A stretch of 40,347 nt of DNA, taken from UHGV virus genome UHGV-0039399. One strand, written 5' to 3'. Positions 3,976 to 35,356 of the stretch are shown piece after piece (position 1 is the first letter of the stretch; each line of letters opens with the position of its first letter). Made by a program: the position numbers and the translations under genes. Under the pieces are notes generated by a model. The model ran no database searches, was not told the DNA's origin, and saw only the letters and a program-made list of their open reading frames with translations. Source of the stretch: a virus.

Positions 3976-4596
3976 TTAATGGAGTACGCGCTTTTCAGGT
4001 TCAGGCATTGGCTGTGCCATTTTACGCGCTTCATTAAGCACGCTTATTACCGCCTGCACGCCCAAATCATTCGCACGCATGTTAATATCAACCATTTCGC
4101 CATAAAACATCGGCATGATCGCCCTTACGTCTTCTTCGTTGTGCCCTTCATCAATGCACTTCTGTAGCGCTTTGGCCTCAAATATTTTCTTCATCACGCC
4201 GCGCACAGAATACAGTGCAGCGCTTCCCATATGGTTTTCGTCCAACGGGAAGATAACAGCACTTCCGAACGCCAGAGGATCAAGATCTTCCGGCACTGGC
4301 ACGCGACCATATTCCTCTTCCATGCGTTTCACGAAAGTTAGGCAGAAGACATAACGAGCTACAGCCGTTTTCTCTTCAGCATCCAGAGACACACAGTCGC
4401 GCATCGACGCTTCCATAACAATATCAGCAACCTGCAACGCCAGGTTCAAATCTGCGTCATACGCGCCAGCATCCATATCTTTAATGACTTCGTGATAATC
4501 CTTCGTTTCAACTTCATGATAACTTGCATCTTCAGCGTAACGAGTGATTAACATTCCGTCATTGCCGAGTGAATAAGCAGTTTTGATGTCTTTCAT
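3976..4596 (-). CDS. hypothetical protein (acidic, 206 aa)
   Basis: Long ORF with plausible protein composition; no recognisable motif. Confidence 0.6.
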   Translation of the reverse strand: MKDIKTAYSLGNDGMLITRYAEDASYHEVETKDYHEVIKDMDAGAYDADLNLALQVADIVMEASMRDCVSLDAEEKTAVARYVFCLTFVKRMEEEYGRVPVPEDLDPLAFGSAVIFPLDENHMGSAALYSVRGVMKKIFEAKALQKCIDEGHNEEDVRAIMPMFYGEMVDINMRANDLGVQAVISVLNEARKMAQPMPEPEKRVLH

Positions 4597-4608
4597 GATA
4601 TTTTCCTT

Positions 4609-4941
4609 TTATAGCGGATGATGCCATCTCATTTCAGTTTCTGGATTGAACGGGTGTCCTTCACTTGAAAGGAATAAATCACGCGCCCGGTTTAGCTCTT
4701 CCTGGCTTACTTCAATTTCATCAATCTGACCGAACGATCCAGGCATCATCCGTTTCAAATCAGATAGCGGGCGCATAAGGCCACAGCCACGCAACATCAT
4801 ATCTAACGCGAACTGCCGCCGCCCTGCCGCATCATTAAAGCGCCGCGCATAAGGAACAACCACGATCCGGCGCTCGAACTCAATAAATAGCGATAGCTTG
4901 TTAGTTTCAGCGTCATACGCTTTATGGAATTTAATTCTCAT
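4609..4941 (-). CDS. hypothetical protein
   Basis: 110-aa ORF in the operon array. Confidence 0.55.
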   Translation of the reverse strand: MRIKFHKAYDAETNKLSLFIEFERRIVVVPYARRFNDAAGRRQFALDMMLRGCGLMRPLSDLKRMMPGSFGQIDEIEVSQEELNRARDLFLSSEGHPFNPETEMRWHHPL

Positions 4942-5122
4942 CTAACACCTCGATATATTGCTCAAGATGCCATTGCCCAACCTCTTCGTAATCTTCATCA
5001 AAAATTGTTACCTGTCCCCCTGGCCCAAAATGAAAAGCGGCGGCGATAAATTCATACCCCCACCATGACATTAATTTTTCTCCGCCTTTCAGGTCTTTGA
5101 CCTTCACCAATTTTATAGCCAT
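4931..5122 (-). CDS. hypothetical protein
   Basis: 63-aa ORF overlapping neighbours at both ends. Confidence 0.45.
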   Translation of the reverse strand: MAIKLVKVKDLKGGEKLMSWWGYEFIAAAFHFGPGGQVTIFDEDYEEVGQWHLEQYIEVLDEN

Positions 5123-15982: not shown

Positions 15983-16636
15983 ATGGCAAATAAAACACCT
16001 CGCGCAATAGGAACAATGATCCACAGATTCCGCGTTGATACTCCTCCTTTCGAAGTGACAACGTTTTCGAGTTATTACGATTTTGGTACGGAGTATTACG
16101 CAGGATCTAAGGTTGGCGGCGAATCTTATACGTTGATGGCTAATACGTGGCGCTTTGTGCGCTTCCCTGAAAAGGATGATGACGGTATGAACAAAGAAAG
16201 CGAAATTATTGATGAACTGATCGAAGATGAGCGCCATGATTGCGATATTCAACCAGAAAAAACGGAATGGTTGGCGGGAGAAAAACCTCCGGTTGGTGTG
16301 TGGCTTGATTGCGTGGGTCTTACGAGCGGAACGGTTCTCGATGTCGTTAAATTTAAGTATGTTGGTGATAAATGGGCTATATGTGAAAGCAAGGAAGAAC
16401 CATGTAGCGAGAGGCCGCTATCATGGACAACATGCGCATTCAGGATTCATGTTGGTCCGATAGAAAAGGCGCTTGCCGAAATAGCGTTCGCACTTGCCAC
16501 TAAGGTAATGGGTGAAGACGCGGCAAGCGAGATCGACTTTAGCCGTGACAGTGATTTTACGCGTGACTATCGCAATATGGCGCAAGCTATTATTGATGGA
16601 TGTATCGGACACGTTGAATACACGGGGAAAAGATAA
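15983..16636 (+). CDS. hypothetical protein
   Basis: 217-aa acidic ORF. Confidence 0.6.
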   Translation: MANKTPRAIGTMIHRFRVDTPPFEVTTFSSYYDFGTEYYAGSKVGGESYTLMANTWRFVRFPEKDDDGMNKESEIIDELIEDERHDCDIQPEKTEWLAGEKPPVGVWLDCVGLTSGTVLDVVKFKYVGDKWAICESKEEPCSERPLSWTTCAFRIHVGPIEKALAEIAFALATKVMGEDAASEIDFSRDSDFTRDYRNMAQAIIDGCIGHVEYTGKR

Positions 16637-16854
16637 TGGATAAGATCGGCGCAATACTCATTAATCGCGAGCAAGTGCAAAAAATGTTGGGCGGGCTTAG
16701 TAAGTCGGCGTTTTTTAAACTGGTTAAGAAGTGGAAGGATTCAGGTACTCCATTCCCTGAACCCGTTAAGGGGATGCCAGCATTAAAGCGCGGCGGTTAT
16801 CTTTACCGTTATCAGGATGTTATTTCATTTTGTAAATCAATGGGCTTCATGTAG
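16636..16854 (+). CDS. excisionase-like / AlpA-type small DNA-binding protein
   Basis: 72-aa protein with the excisionase-type HTH pattern (INREQVQKMLGGLSKSAFFKLVKK); adjacent to int, 3' ends overlap by 43 bp. Confidence 0.6.
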   Translation: MDKIGAILINREQVQKMLGGLSKSAFFKLVKKWKDSGTPFPEPVKGMPALKRGGYLYRYQDVISFCKSMGFM

Positions 16855-27932: not shown

Positions 27933-28637
27933 TTAACCCACCTTGCTGGACCCAGGGAAGCACGAAATCGGTAACGAATTAGGGCGTGGGAAACGCAAAC
28001 GGCAACCGCTCAGGCGGTGGCTGCACCTATCCAGCTTCGGATCGCTGGTCGATTCGTCTTTTTCGGTAGCTACAGGGCCGCCGCTGTATCCGCAACCGTC
28101 GCCCCGGTATTGCCACTGGCAAACGTCGGCGAGGATTGTGCGCCCAGGGATAACAGCCTTGTCAGCATCAATTGGCGTTGACAGTTCGTATTGCACATGA
28201 TCTGCCGTTTCTTCGCTCATCGCCTCAATGACGTAAAAAGATACCGCCTCGATAGACGGATCTGCATCCGGGTTGCCATTGGGGAAGTTGACGGCGTCCA
28301 GGTATTTTACTTCCACCTGGCGGCGCGTAACCTTCATCCCTCGCAGGTCGTTAAAGTCGTTGTTCATCCCGGTAATTAGCCCACCAATGTTAGCCACTGC
28401 CATCTGCGGGCGTGAGTAAACGCCTTCATTTTTCATTTCGAAGCCAGTGGCCTCGATTGGGTAGCTGTTGTAAGCCAATCCCTTCCAGATAACAGGGCCG
28501 TAATAGCCATTCGCGCCGGAATGGAAGCGGATAACCTCGCCACCCAGGGGCGTGAGGTCTAATTCAAACAAGTCAATTACCGCGCCGACTCCGGCATCGA
28601 CGGAATCAATAATCATCTCTGTAGGTATGTTGCGCAT
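27933..28637 (-). CDS. L: minor tail protein L
   Basis: Strong similarity to lambda gpL as I recall it (LDAVNF.NGN..ADP, GR..LA..C.W.YRGD.CGYSG, C-terminal Cys cluster). Confidence 0.9.
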   Translation of the reverse strand: MRNIPTEMIIDSVDAGVGAVIDLFELDLTPLGGEVIRFHSGANGYYGPVIWKGLAYNSYPIEATGFEMKNEGVYSRPQMAVANIGGLITGMNNDFNDLRGMKVTRRQVEVKYLDAVNFPNGNPDADPSIEAVSFYVIEAMSEETADHVQYELSTPIDADKAVIPGRTILADVCQWQYRGDGCGYSGGPVATEKDESTSDPKLDRCSHRLSGCRLRFPRPNSLPISCFPGSSKVG

Positions 28638-28690
28638 TTTATCACCTTGTCATTTTGTGATCGCCATCACGCTAAATCATACCAAAACGG

Positions 28691-28718
28691 TTGATAGCGT
28701 TTTTACAATATGTATATT
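28691..28718 (+). promoter_or_regulatory. candidate sigma70 promoter for the L-M cassette (-35 TTGATA, 16-bp spacer, -10 TATATT)
   Basis: Near-consensus hexamers about 20 nt upstream of the first cassette ORF; the CAAAACGGTT motif sits just upstream. Confidence 0.45.
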
Positions 28719-28734
28719 GTACTCAAAAGGAAGC

Positions 28735-28920
28735 ATGGTTAACAAAATGGCGCGGAGGTGTGAGGTGGATGATAAGGTGTGGAGGTTGACGGTATTCCTT
28801 AGTGATGGCAGGGAAATGACTGTGGCCCTGTATAAAGATGAAGGCGAGGCACTTACTGACGCGCTCTTACTCGCTGAAGATGAACGAGTTTTTGGATACA
28901 GGATCGAACCTGTCAAATGA
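28735..28920 (+). CDS. small acidic protein (61 aa), L-M cassette gene 1
   Basis: ORF with AAAGGAAG RBS on the strand opposite the tail operon. Confidence 0.5.
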   Translation: MVNKMARRCEVDDKVWRLTVFLSDGREMTVALYKDEGEALTDALLLAEDERVFGYRIEPVK

Positions 28921-28933
28921 GAGGTTAACAAAA

Positions 28934-29284
28934 ATGCAAAAATACAGTTTAGAGGTCTGGACTGATAAATGTGAATGGGAGCGCATGGGCCTGTTTGATA
29001 CATACGCCGCAGCGCGTGATGAAGGTCGTGAGTTACTTCGCTGTTGGTCTGGCGCTCGTGATTTTGATATTACTCCGGTCCAGGTGCCGGATATGGTGGA
29101 AGAGATGAACCCGAAAGATATTAACTTCAACGTCAATGTTGAATTTTCAGACTCTATGGATCAGGCTTGCCCTGGTGAAATTCACGCAAAAGGTTTTCCG
29201 GCAGACGATCCAGAAGCAAAACGCGAATACGAAAAAGCTGCGAAAGACTTCTGCATTGATAACCTGGGCGCATTCGATAAATAA
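28934..29284 (+). CDS. acidic protein (116 aa), L-M cassette gene 2
   Basis: GAGAGG RBS; start refined from the track ORF 28838-29284; strongly acidic C-terminal half. Confidence 0.55.
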   Translation: MQKYSLEVWTDKCEWERMGLFDTYAAARDEGRELLRCWSGARDFDITPVQVPDMVEEMNPKDINFNVNVEFSDSMDQACPGEIHAKGFPADDPEAKREYEKAAKDFCIDNLGAFDK

Positions 29285-29293
29285 GGGGGACAC

Positions 29294-29542
29294 ATGGGTC
29301 GGCGCAACCACGGCGATTATGTGTACACGCTGAAACAGGCCGCCCGCCTCGTCGGGTATCATGAGCACGAATTTATTGATTTGCTGATTGAGCGCGGGAT
29401 ACTTTACCAGGTCTGTCTGACGCTGTACCCAAAAGCGAAATACCTACAGGAAAAGTTATTTATCATCATGACGGACGAAAACCAGGTAAATCACTCATTC
29501 GTCACTGATAAAGGTGTCAACTATCTGCGTGATAACTTATAG
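29294..29542 (+). CDS. small HTH DNA-binding protein (82 aa), L-M cassette gene 3
   Basis: GGGGG RBS; N-terminal excisionase/MerR-like HTH (YTLKQAARLVGYHEHEFIDLLIERGIL). Confidence 0.55.
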   Translation: MGRRNHGDYVYTLKQAARLVGYHEHEFIDLLIERGILYQVCLTLYPKAKYLQEKLFIIMTDENQVNHSFVTDKGVNYLRDNL

Positions 29543-29551
29543 GCGGCAATT

Positions 29552-29623
29552 ATGGATGAGGTTATCGAGAATGTTTTGGTAGTGGCTGGCGCAATTGCCA
29601 TAGTTTATGCCTTTCTGAGCTAA
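29552..29623 (+). CDS. 23-aa hydrophobic peptide, L-M cassette gene 4
   Basis: Manually found ORF MDEVIENVLVVAGAIAIVYAFLS; very short, tentative. Confidence 0.25.
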   Translation: MDEVIENVLVVAGAIAIVYAFLS

Positions 29624-29634
29624 TGGGGTGGATT

Positions 29635-29772
29635 ATGAAAATCGAAGTTTTAGCATTAATCGCAATGGGCTTGATCGTCTTCGGTGTTCACGCTGCTGGT
29701 TGGGACTGGGCTGCAATAGCAAACAACATGGCGCACGCTCACCCAATGAGCTTGCTGTATATTCACTACTGA
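29635..29772 (+). CDS. 45-aa membrane peptide, L-M cassette gene 5
   Basis: Manually found ORF MKIEVLALIAMGLIVFGVHAAGWDW...; followed immediately by a strong terminator. Confidence 0.35.
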   Translation: MKIEVLALIAMGLIVFGVHAAGWDWAAIANNMAHAHPMSLLYIHY

Positions 29773-29777
29773 CAAGA

Positions 29778-29808
29778 AAAACCCCGCTTCGCGCGGGGTT
29801 GTTTTTAT
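29778..29808 (+). terminator. rho-independent terminator ending the L-M cassette
   Basis: CCCCGC-ttcgc-GCGGGG hairpin plus T-run; same stem and flanks as the terminator at 21305-21335 but with a reverse-complemented loop. Confidence 0.7.
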
Positions 29809-29990
29809 ACGCCATCAACCAAAAATAAAACCTCCTTGCCCTCCCTGGATCTGCACCCGACATACCCGTCACCCATATCATGCAAATACCATATATCGCC
29901 ATTGTCAGCTTTTACAGCAAGGTCGTTGATCTCATAGTCGGCAAATAATGTAAAAGATTCAGTCTTATCAACCACACAAAAACCGTACAT
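29805..29990 (-). CDS. small protein (61 aa) downstream of M
   Basis: ORF with GGTGGGGGG RBS, starting 15 nt after the M stop. Confidence 0.4.
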   Translation of the reverse strand: MYGFCVVDKTESFTLFADYEINDLAVKADNGDIWYLHDMGDGYVGCRSREGKEVLFLVDGV

Positions 29991-30005
29991 AACAACCCCC
30001 CACCG

Positions 30006-30359
30006 TTAGCCAACAACTTGTTCAAACGTTGCGTTTAGCGTGCAAACAGGCCCGTCTTTGGTCATATTCCAGCTACGACAAACGAAAAGCCTTTGCACCC
30101 CGTCGGTCGATGGAGTCCAGTAAAACGCCTCGACCGCGCCGCGCGCCCTTAAAAATGCGTCAACCTGTAGCGCGACATTTCCTGCTGCACCGCATCCTGC
30201 ACTACTTCCTTTGAAAACCAGGGTATAAGTATCAAGTAACGTGTTGATCCCTTTCGCCTGGCGCTGCTCATAACCGTCACCAAGTTTAACGACGGACACG
30301 TTTGGTTCAGTGTTTACGCTGTAGCTTCTTTGCGGCGTCCATTTGAAAACTTCAGGCAT
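30006..30359 (-). CDS. M: minor tail protein M
   Basis: Similar to lambda gpM as I recall it (GDGYEQR vs GDGYSQR; C-terminal FEQVVG vs FEQVVN); start refined to the ATG preceded by a G8 tract. Confidence 0.85.
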   Translation of the reverse strand: MPEVFKWTPQRSYSVNTEPNVSVVKLGDGYEQRQAKGINTLLDTYTLVFKGSSAGCGAAGNVALQVDAFLRARGAVEAFYWTPSTDGVQRLFVCRSWNMTKDGPVCTLNATFEQVVG

Positions 30360-30533
30360 GATCCCCCCCCTCTCATAAGTTACATATTGCATACATCTTT
30401 ACGCGCTTCTACGCGAAAAATGATAACTTCGTCACAAGAATTATACCAAGTTTACGAAATGGCTTCACACAGGACGCAACAAGATGTATACAGAAAGCAA
30501 GAAGAGAAAGCAGTACCAACAAAGGGGGCCAAT

Positions 30534-30689
30534 ATGGAACGCTATGTAGTGGTAATGCTAAACAAAGCATTCGAACAGGTGGAAGTTGCGATTGTGAAGG
30601 GTTTTGATGATGCATTCAAATACGGTCAATTCATGATGAATGCAAAAGAAGATGAATACCGTGATTTCTTCCTGAAAGTGGTCAACTGA
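30534..30689 (+). CDS. small protein (51 aa), M-tape-measure cassette gene 1
   Basis: AAGGGGG RBS; opposite strand to the tail operon; the track's longer ORF 30330-30689 has weaker start context. Confidence 0.45.
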   Translation: MERYVVVMLNKAFEQVEVAIVKGFDDAFKYGQFMMNAKEDEYRDFFLKVVN

Positions 30690-30709
30690 TTGATTGCGCG
30701 GGGTGAGTT

Positions 30710-30964
30710 ATGAAATTGGTGGCGATTGGCAAAAACCTGAAAGCACAGAAAAACGCACAGGAACGGATCATCAAAAAAGGCAAGGCTTTATTAAATTCTT
30801 TCCTGAAAAAAGAGGCCAACCCCAAAAAATTACGCGATGGCTACGGCTATAAATTTGACATCAACCCCGATTGGCGGTTATTCAGCGAAGATTTAAAGAT
30901 GTGGTTAATTATTGACCATCTGGAATACAACCGCCACTGTGGCGTAAAAGGGGCGCATAAATGA
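30710..30964 (+). CDS. basic Lys-rich protein (84 aa), cassette gene 2
   Basis: ORF with GGGGTGAG RBS-like context. Confidence 0.5.
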   Translation: MKLVAIGKNLKAQKNAQERIIKKGKALLNSFLKKEANPKKLRDGYGYKFDINPDWRLFSEDLKMWLIIDHLEYNRHCGVKGAHK

Positions 30965-30972
30965 GGTGAAAT

Positions 30973-31065
30973 ATGGATGACGATAAATTCACCTGGCGGG
31001 AGATCTGGAACATCTGGCAGGTGATGTTTGCTCGCAGCTACATAGCAAGAAACGGCAGGTTGTGA
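30973..31065 (+). CDS. 30-aa peptide, cassette gene 3
   Basis: Manually found ORF with GAGGTGA RBS; tentative. Confidence 0.25.
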   Translation: MDDDKFTWREIWNIWQVMFARSYIARNGRL

Positions 31066-31083
31066 TTTGCGGAGGAAAATAAA

Positions 31084-31254
31084 ATGAAAAACCCGGCAAA
31101 TAAAAGCAATGTAAAACGTATGGCATGGGTGCTAAAATATATGGATAGCAAAGGGGATACATATACATGTCCATTTTTCAGGTATACTGACGCGGTATTT
31201 GCCAGAAGTGTACACGGAGGGAAAATTGAAAGAGGGTATACAAGATTTGAGTAA
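31084..31254 (+). CDS. small protein (56 aa), cassette gene 4
   Basis: Manually found ORF MKNPANKSNVKRMAWVLKYMDSKGDTYTCPFF...; GGAGG RBS. Confidence 0.4.
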   Translation: MKNPANKSNVKRMAWVLKYMDSKGDTYTCPFFRYTDAVFARSVHGGKIERGYTRFE

Positions 31255-31289
31255 ATTTATTCAGTAAATTAATAACATAATGAAGGTTT

Positions 31290-31472
31290 ATGATGATTAT
31301 TCACGAGACTGAAGAATGCAGAAGGATTGATCTTAGTGTTGAAGATGATGGAAGATTATGGATCGTTAGCGACTGCGAGATGATTGTAATAAACAAAAAG
31401 CAAGCTGACGAACTGATAAGAGCATTACAGCTTTATGCAAGCGGCGAATTTAAGAATGATGAAATTGAATAA
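31290..31472 (+). CDS. small acidic protein (60 aa), cassette gene 5
   Basis: ORF with GAAGG RBS, followed by a terminator. Confidence 0.5.
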   Translation: MMIIHETEECRRIDLSVEDDGRLWIVSDCEMIVINKKQADELIRALQLYASGEFKNDEIE

Positions 31473-31475
31473 AGA

Positions 31476-31506
31476 TAACCCCGGCATTGTACCGGGGTTT
31501 TGTTTA
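31476..31506. terminator. rho-independent terminator between the convergent cassette and tape measure gene
   Basis: CCCCGG-cattgta-CCGGGG hairpin followed by TTTTGTTTATTT. Confidence 0.65.
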
Positions 31507-33852
31507 TTTCCTGCGAGGTTGCAACATACCGCCAGGTCGTTGTGATTCCCTTGCCATCATTTTCATTGCTACGCGCTCCATCGTCTGTTCAAGTCTGCGA
31601 CCGTCTTCGTCGCTAAACCCGTTCGTGGTATGGACGTTTATGTTAACGGGCATATTTATGCCGCCACCATTGAAGAGATCACGGCCAGGAATCACCCTAC
31701 CATTCTCGCCAGGAATCATATACTGACGCCCGTTGCTCGTCTGGAATAGCTCAGGAATCCCGTGTTCACCTACGCGATACAGACTACCACCATTAACAGA
31801 ACCACCATTATAACGCCCGCCGCCAAAAATTGACGTTGCCAGCGACATGATCGCAGAAAGCGCCGCAGCACCAGCCGCCGCCCAGCTACCGCCAGTCGAT
31901 GCAGCAGTAGCCGCCGCAGCAGGGGCCGCCGCAGCCGCGATCTCACCCTGGGCAGCAACAGCGCCAGCCGTTGTACTTGCCTGGGTAGCTTTGCTTTGCG
32001 TTTCCATCATCAACTGATCTGCTATCCAGTTAGCGGCAATTTCTGATAGTTTATTGCCAACAGTATTGAGTATGCTGCTTCCCAGGTTGGCGAAAACCTC
32101 ACTTAGCGATTGAGTACCGTTTAGCAGTCCGGTAAGGGCATTACCCATGCCACCTTTCAGGCCGCTGACGCACGCACCAATCAGGCCGTTTGTGTCGCTT
32201 TGCGCCTGCCATTGTTCCCATTTCAGATCTCTGATCTGTTGTTCATATTCCAATAGAGCCTGTTTCTGTTGCGCCTCTGTAGCGCCCAGGTCTATTAGCA
32301 TTTGTTTTCGAACTGCCCATTCATTTTGCGCCTGCTTGATTGGGTCAATTTCTCCCTTAAGCTGGTCCATCGGGCTAACTATGTGGTCCCATTTATCGCG
32401 TAGCTCATCAACCGGGATCTGAGCTAATTCGTCCTTCAGTTCCTTGCCTATCCCTTTCTGCGCGGCCTTGTACTCAAGGAGGGTTATTTTGCCCTGGGCG
32501 AACGCAGCATCAATGGCCTTGCCGTTCTCCAGCGCCTTACGCATGGCTGCGGCGTCCTTGTTGTACTGGTCGGACACTTTTATACCTTCATCACCAAGCC
32601 GATCAGCTTCTGATTTCTTGTCCTTTTTGCCCTTTTTCCCTTTCTTCGGCTTACCAACTGGCTGATCGAATCCCGTGATCTTGCCATCGTCAGCCTCACC
32701 CTGTTTCTGCATAAACTCATCATAGGCGGCTGTGGCTTTTTCTATGTCATTCTTAAATGTCATGAATTTGCCAATGGTAGGGCCAAATTTCTTCTCGTTG
32801 TTGCTGTTTAGCTCTTCCTTGCGTTTGTCAATGATTTCCTTCATCCATTTGTAGCCATCCATTAGCGCCTTGATTGGCGTCACCATTCTGATGATTTCTT
32901 CCGCCACCTCTCCCGCTTTAACAGCAACATCGTCAAACATGTCGATGAACTCGCTACCAGCGGTTTTAAGTGTATTGAAGCAGGTTGCGGCGAATTTTGC
33001 GCCTTTACCTAATCCCTCAACGCCACCAGTGATTAAGTCTATTGCTGACACAACGCCATCTGATATGCCGAAAAGATCGTCTAGCTGTTCGACAAGCCCC
33101 ATTACCTCAACTTTAAGCTCGTTGAAGGCCATGCCGGACGTGCGCGGCAACTGTGCGAACTTCTCGTTCGTTTCCTGCGTGGATGCCTGGATCGCGTTGA
33201 GCATCCTTTCAGCCGTGATCTTACCGTCCAGCATTTCGGCGCGGAATTGACCCATTGATAACCCCATTTGGCGGGCCATTTCCTGTATGATTGTTGGTGT
33301 GTTGTCACGTATTGAGTTAAATTCTTCAGCCTGCAACACGCCAGCATCAATAGCCTGGCGGAACTGGCGCATGGAGTTAGATAGCTGTTCCGCAGACACG
33401 CCGCCCAGGTTGCCTAGTTTTTGCAGCGTGCTGACCAGGTTTAAGACCTGGCCTTCCGTAGCGGATGTATTTTTTAGCGATATAGCAAGCCCTTGCCACA
33501 GGTCGCCAGTGTCCTTGAGGCTTTGGCCTGTCTCTTTTGATATATCTTTCAGTCTGTTGAAAACGCGTTCCGTGGCCTCTGCTTCACCTGTAAGCAGTTT
33601 GATTTTCACGCGAAGCATTTTTGCTTGCTCCGCCATGTCAATAAACTGGCGCACAGCCTCCGCAGCAAGTAACAGATGGATGACCCTGGATAGTGCTTTG
33701 ATTGAAGTCTTAAGCGTATTCACCTGGCGGTCAGCGCGTTTTGCGCCACGCTCGATACTGTCAAAAGCCTGGTCTGCCTGTCGTTGAGCAACGAGAAGTT
33801 GACCAGTTTTTGCATCAACTTCGTAATAGATTGTACCTAAACTACCCGACAT
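31504..33852 (-). CDS. tail tape measure protein
   Basis: 782-aa, largely alpha-helical, Ala/Gln-rich ORF with a Gly-rich C-terminal region, positioned between tail chaperone and M. Confidence 0.9.
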   Translation of the reverse strand: MSGSLGTIYYEVDAKTGQLLVAQRQADQAFDSIERGAKRADRQVNTLKTSIKALSRVIHLLLAAEAVRQFIDMAEQAKMLRVKIKLLTGEAEATERVFNRLKDISKETGQSLKDTGDLWQGLAISLKNTSATEGQVLNLVSTLQKLGNLGGVSAEQLSNSMRQFRQAIDAGVLQAEEFNSIRDNTPTIIQEMARQMGLSMGQFRAEMLDGKITAERMLNAIQASTQETNEKFAQLPRTSGMAFNELKVEVMGLVEQLDDLFGISDGVVSAIDLITGGVEGLGKGAKFAATCFNTLKTAGSEFIDMFDDVAVKAGEVAEEIIRMVTPIKALMDGYKWMKEIIDKRKEELNSNNEKKFGPTIGKFMTFKNDIEKATAAYDEFMQKQGEADDGKITGFDQPVGKPKKGKKGKKDKKSEADRLGDEGIKVSDQYNKDAAAMRKALENGKAIDAAFAQGKITLLEYKAAQKGIGKELKDELAQIPVDELRDKWDHIVSPMDQLKGEIDPIKQAQNEWAVRKQMLIDLGATEAQQKQALLEYEQQIRDLKWEQWQAQSDTNGLIGACVSGLKGGMGNALTGLLNGTQSLSEVFANLGSSILNTVGNKLSEIAANWIADQLMMETQSKATQASTTAGAVAAQGEIAAAAAPAAAATAASTGGSWAAAGAAALSAIMSLATSIFGGGRYNGGSVNGGSLYRVGEHGIPELFQTSNGRQYMIPGENGRVIPGRDLFNGGGINMPVNINVHTTNGFSDEDGRRLEQTMERVAMKMMARESQRPGGMLQPRRK

Positions 33853-33890: not shown

Positions 33891-33934
33891 TTTATACAAA
33901 ATGTCTTCACTTCAACGTATACATTTTGTATAAA
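33891..33934. promoter_or_regulatory. perfect 14-bp inverted repeat TTTATACAAAATGT-N16-ACATTTTGTATAAA (candidate operator)
   Basis: Exact inverted repeat in the intergenic region between the tape measure start and the third opposite-strand cassette. Confidence 0.5.
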
Positions 33935-34101
33935 GAAGTCAAAGGAAGAGAGAGAAAAGAAGGTCGAAGGAATAAGGGATTAAGACTTGAGGCACAGCCA
34001 ACCGAAGGAACGAGGGAGGCGAAAACCACTAAAACTAACAGGAAACAGAAAAAGGATTTAAAAGACCGGATGAACCGGAGGAAGCAAAAGAGGATAAGAA
34101 A

Positions 34102-34188
34102 ATGAAAGGCTACTACCGACCCAACGAGCATGAGCATTATGCCGACTTTATCGAAGAAATGCTGAAAGCACTTAAAAACAAGAAATAA
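34102..34188 (+). CDS. 28-aa peptide, tape-measure-chaperone cassette gene 1
   Basis: Manually found ORF MKGYYRPNEHEHYADFIEEMLKALKNKK after a purine-rich leader. Confidence 0.3.
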   Translation: MKGYYRPNEHEHYADFIEEMLKALKNKK

Positions 34189-34201
34189 GCGGGGCGGGTG
34201 A

Positions 34202-34309
34202 ATGGACACAATCAAAACGGTTATAGATGTATATATTACAGCATGGTTAGCATTTAATGTGATGGCTGTGCTGGTGCTGGCAATGACAACCGAAGATAAA
34301 CGCAATTGA
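34202..34309 (+). CDS. 35-aa membrane peptide, cassette gene 2
   Basis: Manually found ORF MDTIKTVIDVYITAWLAFNVMAVLVLAMTTEDKRN. Confidence 0.35.
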   Translation: MDTIKTVIDVYITAWLAFNVMAVLVLAMTTEDKRN

Positions 34310-34319
34310 GAGGTGTATC

Positions 34320-34622
34320 ATGGAACTGGTAATTTGCTTCGTCGGATTCATCGCAACTATGGTTGTAGCTCAGAAAAAACACCTGAATATGCTCCCGGCA
34401 TTCTTTGGTGCGCTGATTTGTTGGCCTGCCGTATTGATTTACGCGCTGTGCGTTAACAAAAAGATGTTCAAACACTACGTTGATGCAGTGACTTTCGTAA
34501 GCATGGAGTTCCCGAACGCAACTGACGTACAGAAAGCACAGGTAGCAACTTACATTTACGATAACGTGTACGATATTCATGACCTGGATGAAGCAAGATG
34601 CCGATTCGCAGCATACAAATAA
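34320..34622 (+). CDS. membrane protein (100 aa; two TM segments plus soluble C-terminus), cassette gene 3
   Basis: GAGAGGTG RBS; hydrophobic N-terminal half; followed by a strong terminator. Confidence 0.6.
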   Translation: MELVICFVGFIATMVVAQKKHLNMLPAFFGALICWPAVLIYALCVNKKMFKHYVDAVTFVSMEFPNATDVQKAQVATYIYDNVYDIHDLDEARCRFAAYK

Positions 34623-34626
34623 AGAT

Positions 34627-34654
34627 AAAGGCCCGGTTAATTCCGGGCTTTTTC
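34627..34654 (+). terminator. rho-independent terminator ending the third cassette
   Basis: GCCCGG-ttaatt-CCGGGC hairpin followed by TTTTTCTTGTTT. Confidence 0.65.
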
Positions 34655-35317
34655 TTGTTTGCGTTTTTTCATCAATTCCAGCACCCTTTTAGCCGCTCCC
34701 ATTTGCTCATCATAATCACGTTTATTTATCTGAACGTTTGGCTTACGTTTCTCGTTTCTTTCGTCTGGCGGCGTTTTAGCGCGTACAGCGGCACGATACC
34801 CGGTCATGGTCATACCCCACGCCTCAGACTCAGACAATCCCAGGTGAGCAACGGCAGAGTAAACATACTCAAGGATGTCGAATGTCTGTTTATAATCGCC
34901 TTCCTGCTCATCGCTAACGTCTTCCTCCGGTCCGTCACCAATTAAACCGTGGAACATGCAGTGTTGCGCCAGTGTGATAACGTCGCTGGTGGGCATTAAT
35001 CCGGGTTTTAGTCTCAACTTACCCGAAGGAGTGAAGCTACATTCGCCCAATAACTGGCCTATTTCGCATTCTGAGCAACATTTCAATATGTGGATGGACG
35101 TTTGCACCAGTTCACCATAACAACGCGCCAGAATGCGATTGCGGAGGTCTGGATCAACTGGCATACGCCGTGGGTATTTGCCACCGTGAACCGTTGCGAA
35201 GTATTCGACCAGTTCCCTGTCACCGCCGATCTTAGCCATTGCAGCAAAGCAGGGATTAAATTCGTAACGTCTGCCATCAACCACAACCGCAAACTGTCCT
35301 GTTCGAACGTGAATCAT
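34637..35317 (-). CDS. putative tail assembly chaperone (G/GT position)
   Basis: 226-aa ORF between the tail tube gene and tape measure; AAGGTG RBS at the refined ATG; assignment by position only. Confidence 0.45.
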   Translation of the reverse strand: MIHVRTGQFAVVVDGRRYEFNPCFAAMAKIGGDRELVEYFATVHGGKYPRRMPVDPDLRNRILARCYGELVQTSIHILKCCSECEIGQLLGECSFTPSGKLRLKPGLMPTSDVITLAQHCMFHGLIGDGPEEDVSDEQEGDYKQTFDILEYVYSAVAHLGLSESEAWGMTMTGYRAAVRAKTPPDERNEKRKPNVQINKRDYDEQMGAAKRVLELMKKRKQEKARN

Positions 35318-35327
35318 AGTTGTCACC

Positions 35328-35356
35328 TTAAAAAATAAAGGGGCCAAGCGGCCCCG
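35328..35356 (-). terminator. rho-independent terminator after the major tail gene (attenuator)
   Basis: GGGGCC-loop-GGCCCC hairpin followed by CUUUAUUUUUU on the minus strand, 17 nt after the tail tube gene stop. Confidence 0.6.

Follow-up and report, generated by a model that had tools for sequence, protein, structure and literature searches.

What are five small genes doing on the plus strand of a phage tail operon, placed between the minus-strand genes for the tape measure protein and minor tail protein M? The question is raised by the UHGV virus genome UHGV-0039399, analyzed here as a single stretch of 40,347 nucleotides (nt), the window. We find that its five open reading frames (ORF1 to ORF5, separated by gaps of 8–35 nt) belong to an autonomous-looking antisense unit bounded by a terminator. 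The unit comprises a core of two genes, the second of which encodes a protein with a predicted toxin fold, followed by a slot for exchangeable cargo. The phage itself is a temperate coliphage of the mEp021 or ‘mEpimmI’ group. Bases 29900–31900 are 98% identical to Escherichia phage mEp010 and 81–97% identical to mEp044, mEp554, mEp515, mEp013, mEp021 and MagusPhagus, and prophages matching this stretch are found in 35 of 5,426 complete E. coli genomes. The group has been described as Nus-dependent, non-lambdoid temperate coliphages, and its prevalence in a collection made from human faeces is reported to equal that of the lambdoid phages (PMC11893012). In that genome study, the passages searched for accessory genes, variable regions, morons, toxins and the tape measure make no mention of cassettes in the tail operon. 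The genes of the cassette are already in GenBank as hypothetical proteins, and the family of ORF2 already has a Pfam entry.

Are the five ORFs genes? The ratio of the proportions of non-synonymous and synonymous differences (pN/pS) was calculated by the method of Nei and Gojobori over all unique full-length homologues. It is 0.07, 0.18, 0.10, 0.18 and 0.23 for ORF1 through ORF5, respectively (with a pS of 0.68 for ORF3), and 0.11 for M, which served as a control. For each of the five the annotated frame has the lowest pN/pS of the six when the related junctions are compared. Each ORF is preceded by a Shine–Dalgarno-like motif that is conserved in the relatives, and the start codons are similarly conserved; for ORF3 the ATG is present in all 34 full-length homologues. 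Thus the frame-specific low pN/pS, taken with the conserved starts and Shine–Dalgarno motifs, shows that all five ORFs are protein-coding, including ORF3 with just 30 amino acids (aa). A preliminary description of the sequence had noted the five ORFs, their ribosome-binding sites (RBSs) and a terminator facing the end of the tape measure gene, all of which are confirmed by the ORF scan, the conserved motifs and the hairpin discussed below, and had named non-coding spacer as the finding that would overturn it; this is excluded by the frame-specific purifying selection. Two boundaries require correction. M was taken to extend to position 30392 and the cassette region to begin at 30393, but M starts at 30359, and it is annotated with a length of 354 nt in mEp010, mEp021 and other relatives. 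ORF5 is protein-coding, but the 60-aa start is probably wrong; 7 of the 12 full-length homologues have ATA in place of the first ATG, so that translation probably begins at the second ATG (31293), giving a protein of 59 aa. A longer ORF1 of 89 aa, as annotated in mEp010, was rejected: the PHROG profile spans the 51-aa part alone, and the upstream extension is broken by insertions and deletions in relatives.

We next consider how the junction is built in other phages. The comparison covers 53 junctions, of which 46 are IMG/VR loci fetched via ORF2 and 7 are annotated GenBank or RefSeq loci; the presence of ORF2 throughout this set is a consequence of the way in which it was selected. A second set was fetched independently through M, and contains 31 loci with an M identity of at least 82%. 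ORF1 is present in 51 of the 53 junctions, with ORF3, ORF4 and ORF5 in 32, 27 and 22, respectively. In the M-selected loci ORF2 is present in 31 out of 31 and ORF1 in 29. The shortest junction, found in at least 10 loci, is 681 nt long, and is made up exactly of the spacer, ORF1, ORF2 and the terminator. The fixed frame is therefore the presumed 174-nt control region, the two core genes and the terminator, with a variable slot after ORF2. All the group members examined have ORF2, and a single lineage is without ORF1.

The slot is filled in diverse ways. Among GenBank phages ORF5 is found in mEp010, mEp044 and mEp515 only. Elsewhere a 49-aa gene or a gene for a 95-aa membrane protein lies between ORF2 and the terminator. 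The slot of mEp515 (locus L006 2242–2748) contains an HNH_3 homing-type endonuclease, while that of mEp013 (L007 2922–4232) encodes a 436-aa protein with five DUF4379 treble-clef zinc fingers, CapR domains and T5orf172 (GIY-YIG-like); the latter appears to be split into two ORFs in mEp021 (L003 2642–3976). The HNH_3 and the zinc-finger/CapR/T5orf172 genes are likely to be selfish or mobile. In an outgroup of siphophages whose M is ∼67% identical, 14 loci have no gap between the tape measure gene and M. The other outgroup loci have a gap of 165–491 nt, mostly of ∼310 nt, and this can contain unrelated cargo, such as a 70-aa acidic protein on the same strand (L092 3232–3444, plus) or a 132-aa protein with a hydrophobic N-terminus on the opposite strand (L096 3010–3408, minus). 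From the M-selected loci, the minimal junctions and the contents of the outgroup gaps we conclude that the tape measure–M junction has served recurrently as a site for accessory genes, but that within the group the ORF1–ORF2 core is old and fixed and the distal slot alone is fluid. The alignment of junctions that the preliminary description had proposed as a check thus bears out its suggestion of hotspots at tail gene junctions, with a slot that varies among the 53 junctions, an outgroup that is empty or carries other cargo, and a sister cassette at the L–M junction. It does not bear out the idea that the cassette as a whole is a second independent, recent insertion, given the occurrence of the core in the M-selected loci and the composition of the minimal junction.

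Extra DNA is present in two junctions, with no convincing ORF in either. In L015 (3169–3826) ∼490 nt lie between M and the conserved spacer, and in L043 (∼4256–5056) there are ∼700 nt after ORF2.

The variation of content among phages with near-identical tail genes is hard to reconcile with a role for the products as tail-assembly accessory factors or chaperones. That role might be suggested by where the genes lie, with the tape measure gene on one side and M on the other, and by the fact that most of the products belong to no family, which might equally suggest meaningless spacer ORFs. However, the genes lie on the opposite strand with a terminator of their own, the outgroup phages function with homologous M and tape measure genes abutting, and the selection on the reading frames leaves no place for non-coding spacer. 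We consider either version of this explanation to be very improbable indeed.

At the right-hand boundary of the cassette, a G+C-rich hairpin at 31477–31499 (AACCCCGG..CCGGGGTT) has a folding energy of −19.4 kcal/mol (z = −3.9), and is followed by TTGTTTATTT, giving a terminator-like reading on both strands. It is separated by 4 nt from the stop codon of the tape measure gene (31504–31506, minus strand). ARNold terminators are annotated at the equivalent position in mEp010, mEp554 and mEp515, and the same hairpin with its T tract is kept in the minimal loci that contain ORF1 and ORF2 only. The G+C content of the cassette is 0.38–0.42, compared with 0.48–0.56 in the flanks, and the sign of the GC skew is inverted. 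The earlier view of the cassette as an accessory one, placed on the opposite strand within the tail operon, is upheld. Classical morons, such as lom and bor of lambda and gp15 of HK97, are units of promoter, gene(s) and terminator that lie between essential late genes. The cassette shares with these its own terminator, a deviating base composition, and distal genes (ORF3–5 or other cargo) that are polymorphic for presence and absence. But whereas the classical morons are sporadic, the ORF1–ORF2 core is fixed across the phage group. In structure the cassette is also a noncontiguous operon, a plus-strand unit nested between minus-strand tape measure and M genes. As an accessory cassette (‘moron’) of a phage it is fairly ordinary. 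No new principle is involved; examples of morons, of toxin-like genes in prophages and of noncontiguous operons have been described before. What sets the cassette apart is that its toxin-fold gene is naturally viable in the absence of the neighbouring ORF1, and is shared with virulent phages.

What kind of protein is ORF2? The preliminary description saw no recognizable motifs in the cassette, yet residues 19–75 of ORF2 match the Pfam family PF24732 (ParE_like) with a score of 44.5 bits (E = 1.6e-11), well clear of the gathering cut-off at 24.4. The family is matched by all 19 aligned ORF2 relatives, with a best E of 6e-19, and the Prokaryotic Genome Annotation Pipeline (PGAP) names the prophage copies ‘ParE family toxin-like protein’. 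A first AlphaFold2 model based on 12 close homologues was poor, with a predicted local distance difference test score of 55, and was redone with 19 diverse homologues. The new model can be superposed on solved members of the RelE/ParE superfamily, and predicted structures of PF24732 proteins superpose with ORF2 with template modelling scores of 0.76–0.89. The best structural matches are the ribosome-dependent mRNA endonucleases HigB, YafQ, RelE and YoeB, which lead the gyrase poisons of the ParE type by a small margin. Modelling therefore assigns the RelE/ParE toxin fold to ORF2 with modest strength, and the structural neighbours would slightly favour ribosome-dependent mRNA cleavage over the poisoning of gyrase. 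The invariant residues of PF24732 are K40, L41, R56, H70 and N74. As judged from the sequence alignment, K40, R56, H70 and N74 together with a mostly aromatic residue at 73 would be compatible with the active site of an RNase.

In other respects ORF2 stands apart from the RelE/ParE toxins (RelE, YoeB, YafQ, HigB and ParE). These have two N-terminal helices where ORF2 has one, and they share no similarity with it at the level of sequence or profile. At E up to 10, none of the 19 members matches the Pfam families ParE_toxin, YoeB, YafQ, HigB or RelE. Verified RelE and YoeB sequences reach a probability below 1% in hhalign, the shuffled pairwise z is ∼0, and searches of the PDB with ORF2 profiles were negative. 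An alignment of residues to RelE and YoeB made by eye (KKLR.., YK, W/Y-R-L) was discarded, as it is supported neither by hhalign nor by the shuffled pairwise scores. The other products of the cassette are less informative. NCBIfam and PADLOC scans gave no significant match to any of the five proteins. Pfam has no match for ORF1, ORF3, ORF4 or ORF5, sequence searches of the PDB found none for ORF1, ORF4 or ORF5, and both ORF3 and ORF4 lack a family match in NCBIfam, Pfam, PHROG and PADLOC. The remote homology search that had been proposed for the 84-aa and 60-aa proteins was thus rewarding for ORF2, but for ORF5 it returned phrog_13627 only, with nothing from Pfam or the PDB.

Is ORF1 the antitoxin of ORF2? 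In a type II toxin–antitoxin pair a labile, acidic ORF1 would neutralize ORF2 and autoregulate the operon, and the module would stabilize the prophage or kill infected cells, with ORF3–5 as passengers. The order, size and charge of the two proteins fit such a pair (51 aa with pI 4.85, encoded 20 nt upstream of a co-oriented gene for 84 aa with pI 9.9). So do their co-occurrence (51/53 junctions and 29/31 M-selected loci), the fold and the toxin-like PGAP name of ORF2, and the existence of truncated ORF2 variants, as expected of decaying toxins. However, ORF1 can be lost cleanly. It is deleted precisely between two ATGAAAC start motifs in the loci L020 and L022 and in a porcine E. coli with a finished genome, UMNK88, fusing the ORF1 RBS and ATGAAAC to an ORF2 that is full-length and keeps all the family invariants. 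The ORF2 genes of L020 and L022 differ by seven synonymous and two non-synonymous codons. A lineage that includes a cultured strain has thus kept an intact and still-constrained ORF2 behind the RBS of ORF1, and because ORF2 persists in this way ORF1 would not be an obligatory antitoxin. ORF3 is retained in all the loci that lack ORF1, so that a substitute neutralizer is possible there.

Nor do the two proteins covary. The correlation of their pairwise identities is weak (r = 0.24), ORF2 variants that share just 60% identity are found beside one and the same ORF1 sequence, and by pN/pS ORF1 is more constrained than the supposed toxin (0.07 against 0.18). The partner of ORF2 is therefore dispensable and non-covarying, unlike those of the RelE/ParE toxins. 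ORF1 homologues are restricted to this phage group, with identities of at least 76%. There is no significant match to ORF1 in Pfam, NCBIfam or the PDB, and so no known antitoxin or DNA-binding family, but just a phrog of unknown function (phrog_29810). Finally, no ORF1-like or otherwise conserved neighbour was found beside the distant homologues of ORF2. The clean loss of ORF1 with ORF2 intact, the lack of covariation and the partnerless relatives weaken the classical toxin–antitoxin reading, which we regard as rather unlikely. It seems that the toxin-like ORF2 does not need an antitoxin.

How general is ORF2? Close homologues are confined to the mEp021 group. Profile and second word-index searches found relatives at 23–52% identity, and an exhaustive profile search of 1.84 billion representatives, made with a narrow starting profile, returned nine proteins at E up to 0.001. 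The distant relatives sit in long arrays of small co-directional genes. Using tblastn, we located relatives in the terminal-repeat early regions of jumbo phages like Rak2, phAPEC6, K64-1 and GAP32, and in virulent siphophages of ∼42 kb such as Sortsne. The PF24732 members of Klebsiella phage RaK2, Yersinia phage fHe-Yen9-04 and Klebsiella phage Muenster resemble ORF2 in score, invariant residues and superposition of the models. The context is nevertheless different; the other members examined lie in co-directional early arrays of virulent or jumbo phages, whereas ORF2 is antisense within a temperate tail operon, and has a dedicated upstream partner in ORF1. A literature search found no paper citing PF24732. 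A plasmid origin for one distant homologue that is close to a ParA gene gained no support, there being no match to its sequence in PLSDB.

The jumbo-phage homologues (L054–L056, L059, L060 and L142) lie in the terminal repeat amongst dozens of small neighbours without a Pfam match, and each is preceded by a conserved protein of 116–118 aa. In Klebsiella phage Muenster (L142) the gene after the homologue (16393–16641) encodes a putative membrane protein, and the next one a putative protein kinase.

A precedent for a solitary protein of this kind is the endoribonuclease RegB of phage T4, which has the fold of RelE/YoeB with an extra N-terminal helix, and no known antitoxin (PMC3014915). It provides a functional model for a solitary ORF2, from which it differs in the additional helix, and it was not among the matches of the ORF2 fold search. 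RegB is about twice as long as ORF2. On this model ORF2 would be an antitoxin-independent, RNase-like lytic factor that inactivates host or early mRNA in the manner of RegB, or acts in counter-defence, and the cassette would be an early or middle lytic unit and not one expressed in the lysogen. The tolerance of ORF2 for the loss of ORF1 is consistent with this, as are the PF24732 homologues without a conserved partner in the early-type small-gene arrays of jumbo phages and in the Sortsne-like siphophages. A solitary factor would leave unexplained the near-universal and strongly constrained ORF1 beside ORF2, however, and antisense nesting in a late operon with an own terminator is typical of morons expressed in lysogens (PMC11364771, PMC11087260). 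We think it unlikely that ORF2 is such a lytic factor.

The expression of the cassette would be governed by the spacer between M and ORF1, presumed to be the control region of the cassette and/or the leader of M. In a comparison of 46 unique sequences, conservation reaches at least 90% at most positions, more than at the third codon positions of ORF1, and the spacer is better conserved than the genes beside it. On the plus strand the hexamers TTCACA and TATACA (TATATA in most relatives) are invariant in L020 and L022 where the intervening sequence diverges with its length kept. We infer from this that TTCACA-N17-TATA(C/T)A is a candidate promoter for the cassette. On the minus strand there is a perfect TATAAT preceded by GTGAAG; an alignment of 22 sequences shows no change in TATAAT or GTGAAGCC, but variation in their flanks. 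This suggests a pair of back-to-back promoters with a common −35 zone. The minus-strand RNA of the spacer has a folding energy of −52.5 kcal/mol, compared with −40.9 ± 3.6 kcal/mol for shuffled sequences (z = −3.2), whereas the folding of the plus-strand RNA is not unusual (z = −0.6). RNAalifold identifies just two covarying pairs in a region that hardly varies, and there is no match to Rfam in the spacer or the cassette.

Some further features of the spacer may be noted. An invariant direct repeat TACGCG-N4-TACGCG (30401–30416) lies inside a small invariant hairpin, and the minus-strand RNA can pair the poly-G RBS of M with the poly-C antisense of the ORF1 RBS. Two candidates were set aside. 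A small minus-strand ORF annotated in mEp515 and MagusPhagus has frames that are inconsistent among relatives, and a minus-strand promoter flagged by the scan (TTGGTA-N18-TATCAT, 30449–30420) was discounted as it rests on bases specific to the window.

We favour the explanation that the cassette is a self-contained antisense accessory unit, a moron and noncontiguous operon, that carries a conditional toxin-fold effector; taken together with the regulation that we propose, we hold it to be evenly poised between right and wrong. In lysogeny or early in infection, with the late operon silent, the cassette would be transcribed from its own promoter in the spacer. It would then be damped by convergent transcription of the late operon from the tape measure gene into M; on its way to M the late transcript would have to run through the cassette in antisense, unless a separate promoter serves M. 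The toxin-fold ORF2 would in this way be available in the lysogen, for example for translation arrest on superinfection or stress, and off during the production of virions. ORF1 would be a group-specific partner, perhaps a modulator, and not the antidote of an addiction module, while ORF3–5 would be real but exchangeable cargo. Regulation by antisense nesting in a phage operon has been shown for TaiEcA/AtiEcA of phi80 (PMC11364771) and Tha/Ith of S. aureus 80alpha (PMC11087260), where it couples immune or toxic function to the switch between lysogeny and lysis. The cassette resembles these in placing a gene or genes with their own promoter, here a candidate, antisense inside a phage operon. 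But it has no homology to Tai, Ati, Tha or Ith, and its antisense unit contains five genes.

Several observations weigh against this explanation. The case for the cassette promoter is one of conservation, and a consensus scan found four promoter sites compared with 4.4 in shuffled sequences, not above chance; the plus-strand candidate was not flagged, as it lacks the T at position 6 of the −10 hexamer. The invariant bases of the spacer could instead serve the minus-strand promoter or a structured leader of M. ORF2 has no sequence-level link to RelE, YoeB, ParE or solved structures, and its catalytic residues therefore cannot be assigned. None of the five proteins matches the defence models of PADLOC-DB v2 at E up to 1. 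Lastly, ORF2 has relatives in virulent phages, where a role in protecting the lysogen is impossible.

One may extend the favoured explanation to the family. PF24732 might represent a branch of the RelE/ParE fold that is peculiar to phages and independent of antitoxins, perhaps one of RegB-like mRNA endonucleases, and that temperate, virulent and jumbo phages of enterobacteria have in common. In the mEp021 group one copy would have been wired antisense into the tail operon with a new partner, ORF1, so as to be on in the lysogen and silenced by late transcription. We find this doubtful. If true, it would be a life-cycle-coupled toxin-fold module, serving defence or host control, that lies outside the logic of toxin and antitoxin. 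The analysis establishes at all events that the ORFs are real and under selection, that a fixed core is combined with a cargo slot, and that ORF2, the one protein with a predicted toxin fold, survives without its presumed antitoxin. The cassette thus provides a testable system for the role of solitary RelE/ParE-fold proteins in phages, and for the question whether phages of enterobacteria generally use antisense nesting in a late operon to switch the functions that their prophages express. The features discussed are collected in Table 1.

Table 1. Positions of the cassette, its boundaries and related features. Positions are those of the window, except for the loci lacking ORF1, which carry their own numbering.
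Feature	Position	Strand	Remarks
Minor tail protein M, 117 aa	30006–30359	−	left boundary; PF05939 Phage_min_tail, E 1.1e-29
M–ORF1 spacer, 174 nt	30360–30533	.	near-invariant; presumed control region of cassette and/or M leader
Candidate back-to-back promoter	30440–30468	−	GTGAAG, 17-nt spacer, perfect TATAAT (reverse complement of 30440–30445)
Candidate sigma-70 cassette promoter	30464–30492	+	TTCACA (30464–30469), 17-nt spacer, TATACA (30487–30492)
ORF1, 51 aa	30534–30689	+	acidic, pI 4.85; phrog_29810, E 7e-35
ORF2, 84 aa	30710–30964	+	basic, pI 9.9; PF24732 ParE_like, predicted RelE/ParE-superfamily fold
ORF3, 30 aa	30973–31065	+	Trp-rich; variable-slot gene; GAGGTGA RBS conserved
ORF4, 56 aa	31084–31254	+	basic, pI 9.8; variable-slot gene; GGAGGAAAA RBS conserved
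ORF5, 60 aa (probably 59)	31290–31472	+	acidic, pI 4.4; variable-slot gene; phrog_13627, E 2.3e-7
RBS motifs, ORF1 to ORF5			AAGGGGG/AAGGAGG; GGGGTGAG; GAGGTGA; GGAGGAAAA; GAAGG/GGAGG
Bidirectional intrinsic-terminator-like hairpin and T tract	31477–31509	both	right boundary of cassette
Tape measure protein, 782 aa	31504–33852	−	right boundary; annotated thus in MagusPhagus, mEp021 and E. coli prophages
Terminator of sister cassette, L–M junction	29780–29800	both	hairpin AACCCCGC..GCGGGGTT, closely resembles hairpin 31477–31499
ORF1-deleted locus L020	3834–4007
ORF1-deleted locus L022	3834–4007
ORF1-deleted locus L143	1555–1728		E. coli UMNK88, NC_017641.1

Other parts of the window contain small genes of comparable arrangement. 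The sister cassette at the L–M junction (28552–29800, plus strand) matches the design of that studied here, with several small plus-strand genes. One of these (29294–29542) encodes an 82-aa protein with a KilAC/ANT antirepressor domain (PF03374, E 1.3e-6). A third block of small plus-strand ORFs, of 59, 28, 35 and 100 aa, occupies 33926–34622, with the tape measure gene on one side and a DUF6246 gene on the minus strand (34637–35347) on the other; a Pfam scan of the 59- and 100-aa ORFs gave no matches. Immediately downstream of M there is a minus-strand ORF of 61 aa (29805–29990), which has no Pfam match and is annotated in mEp010, mEp021, mEp554, mEp515, mEp013 and MagusPhagus. This ORF and M make up a minus-strand island of two genes, flanked on either side by an antisense cassette.

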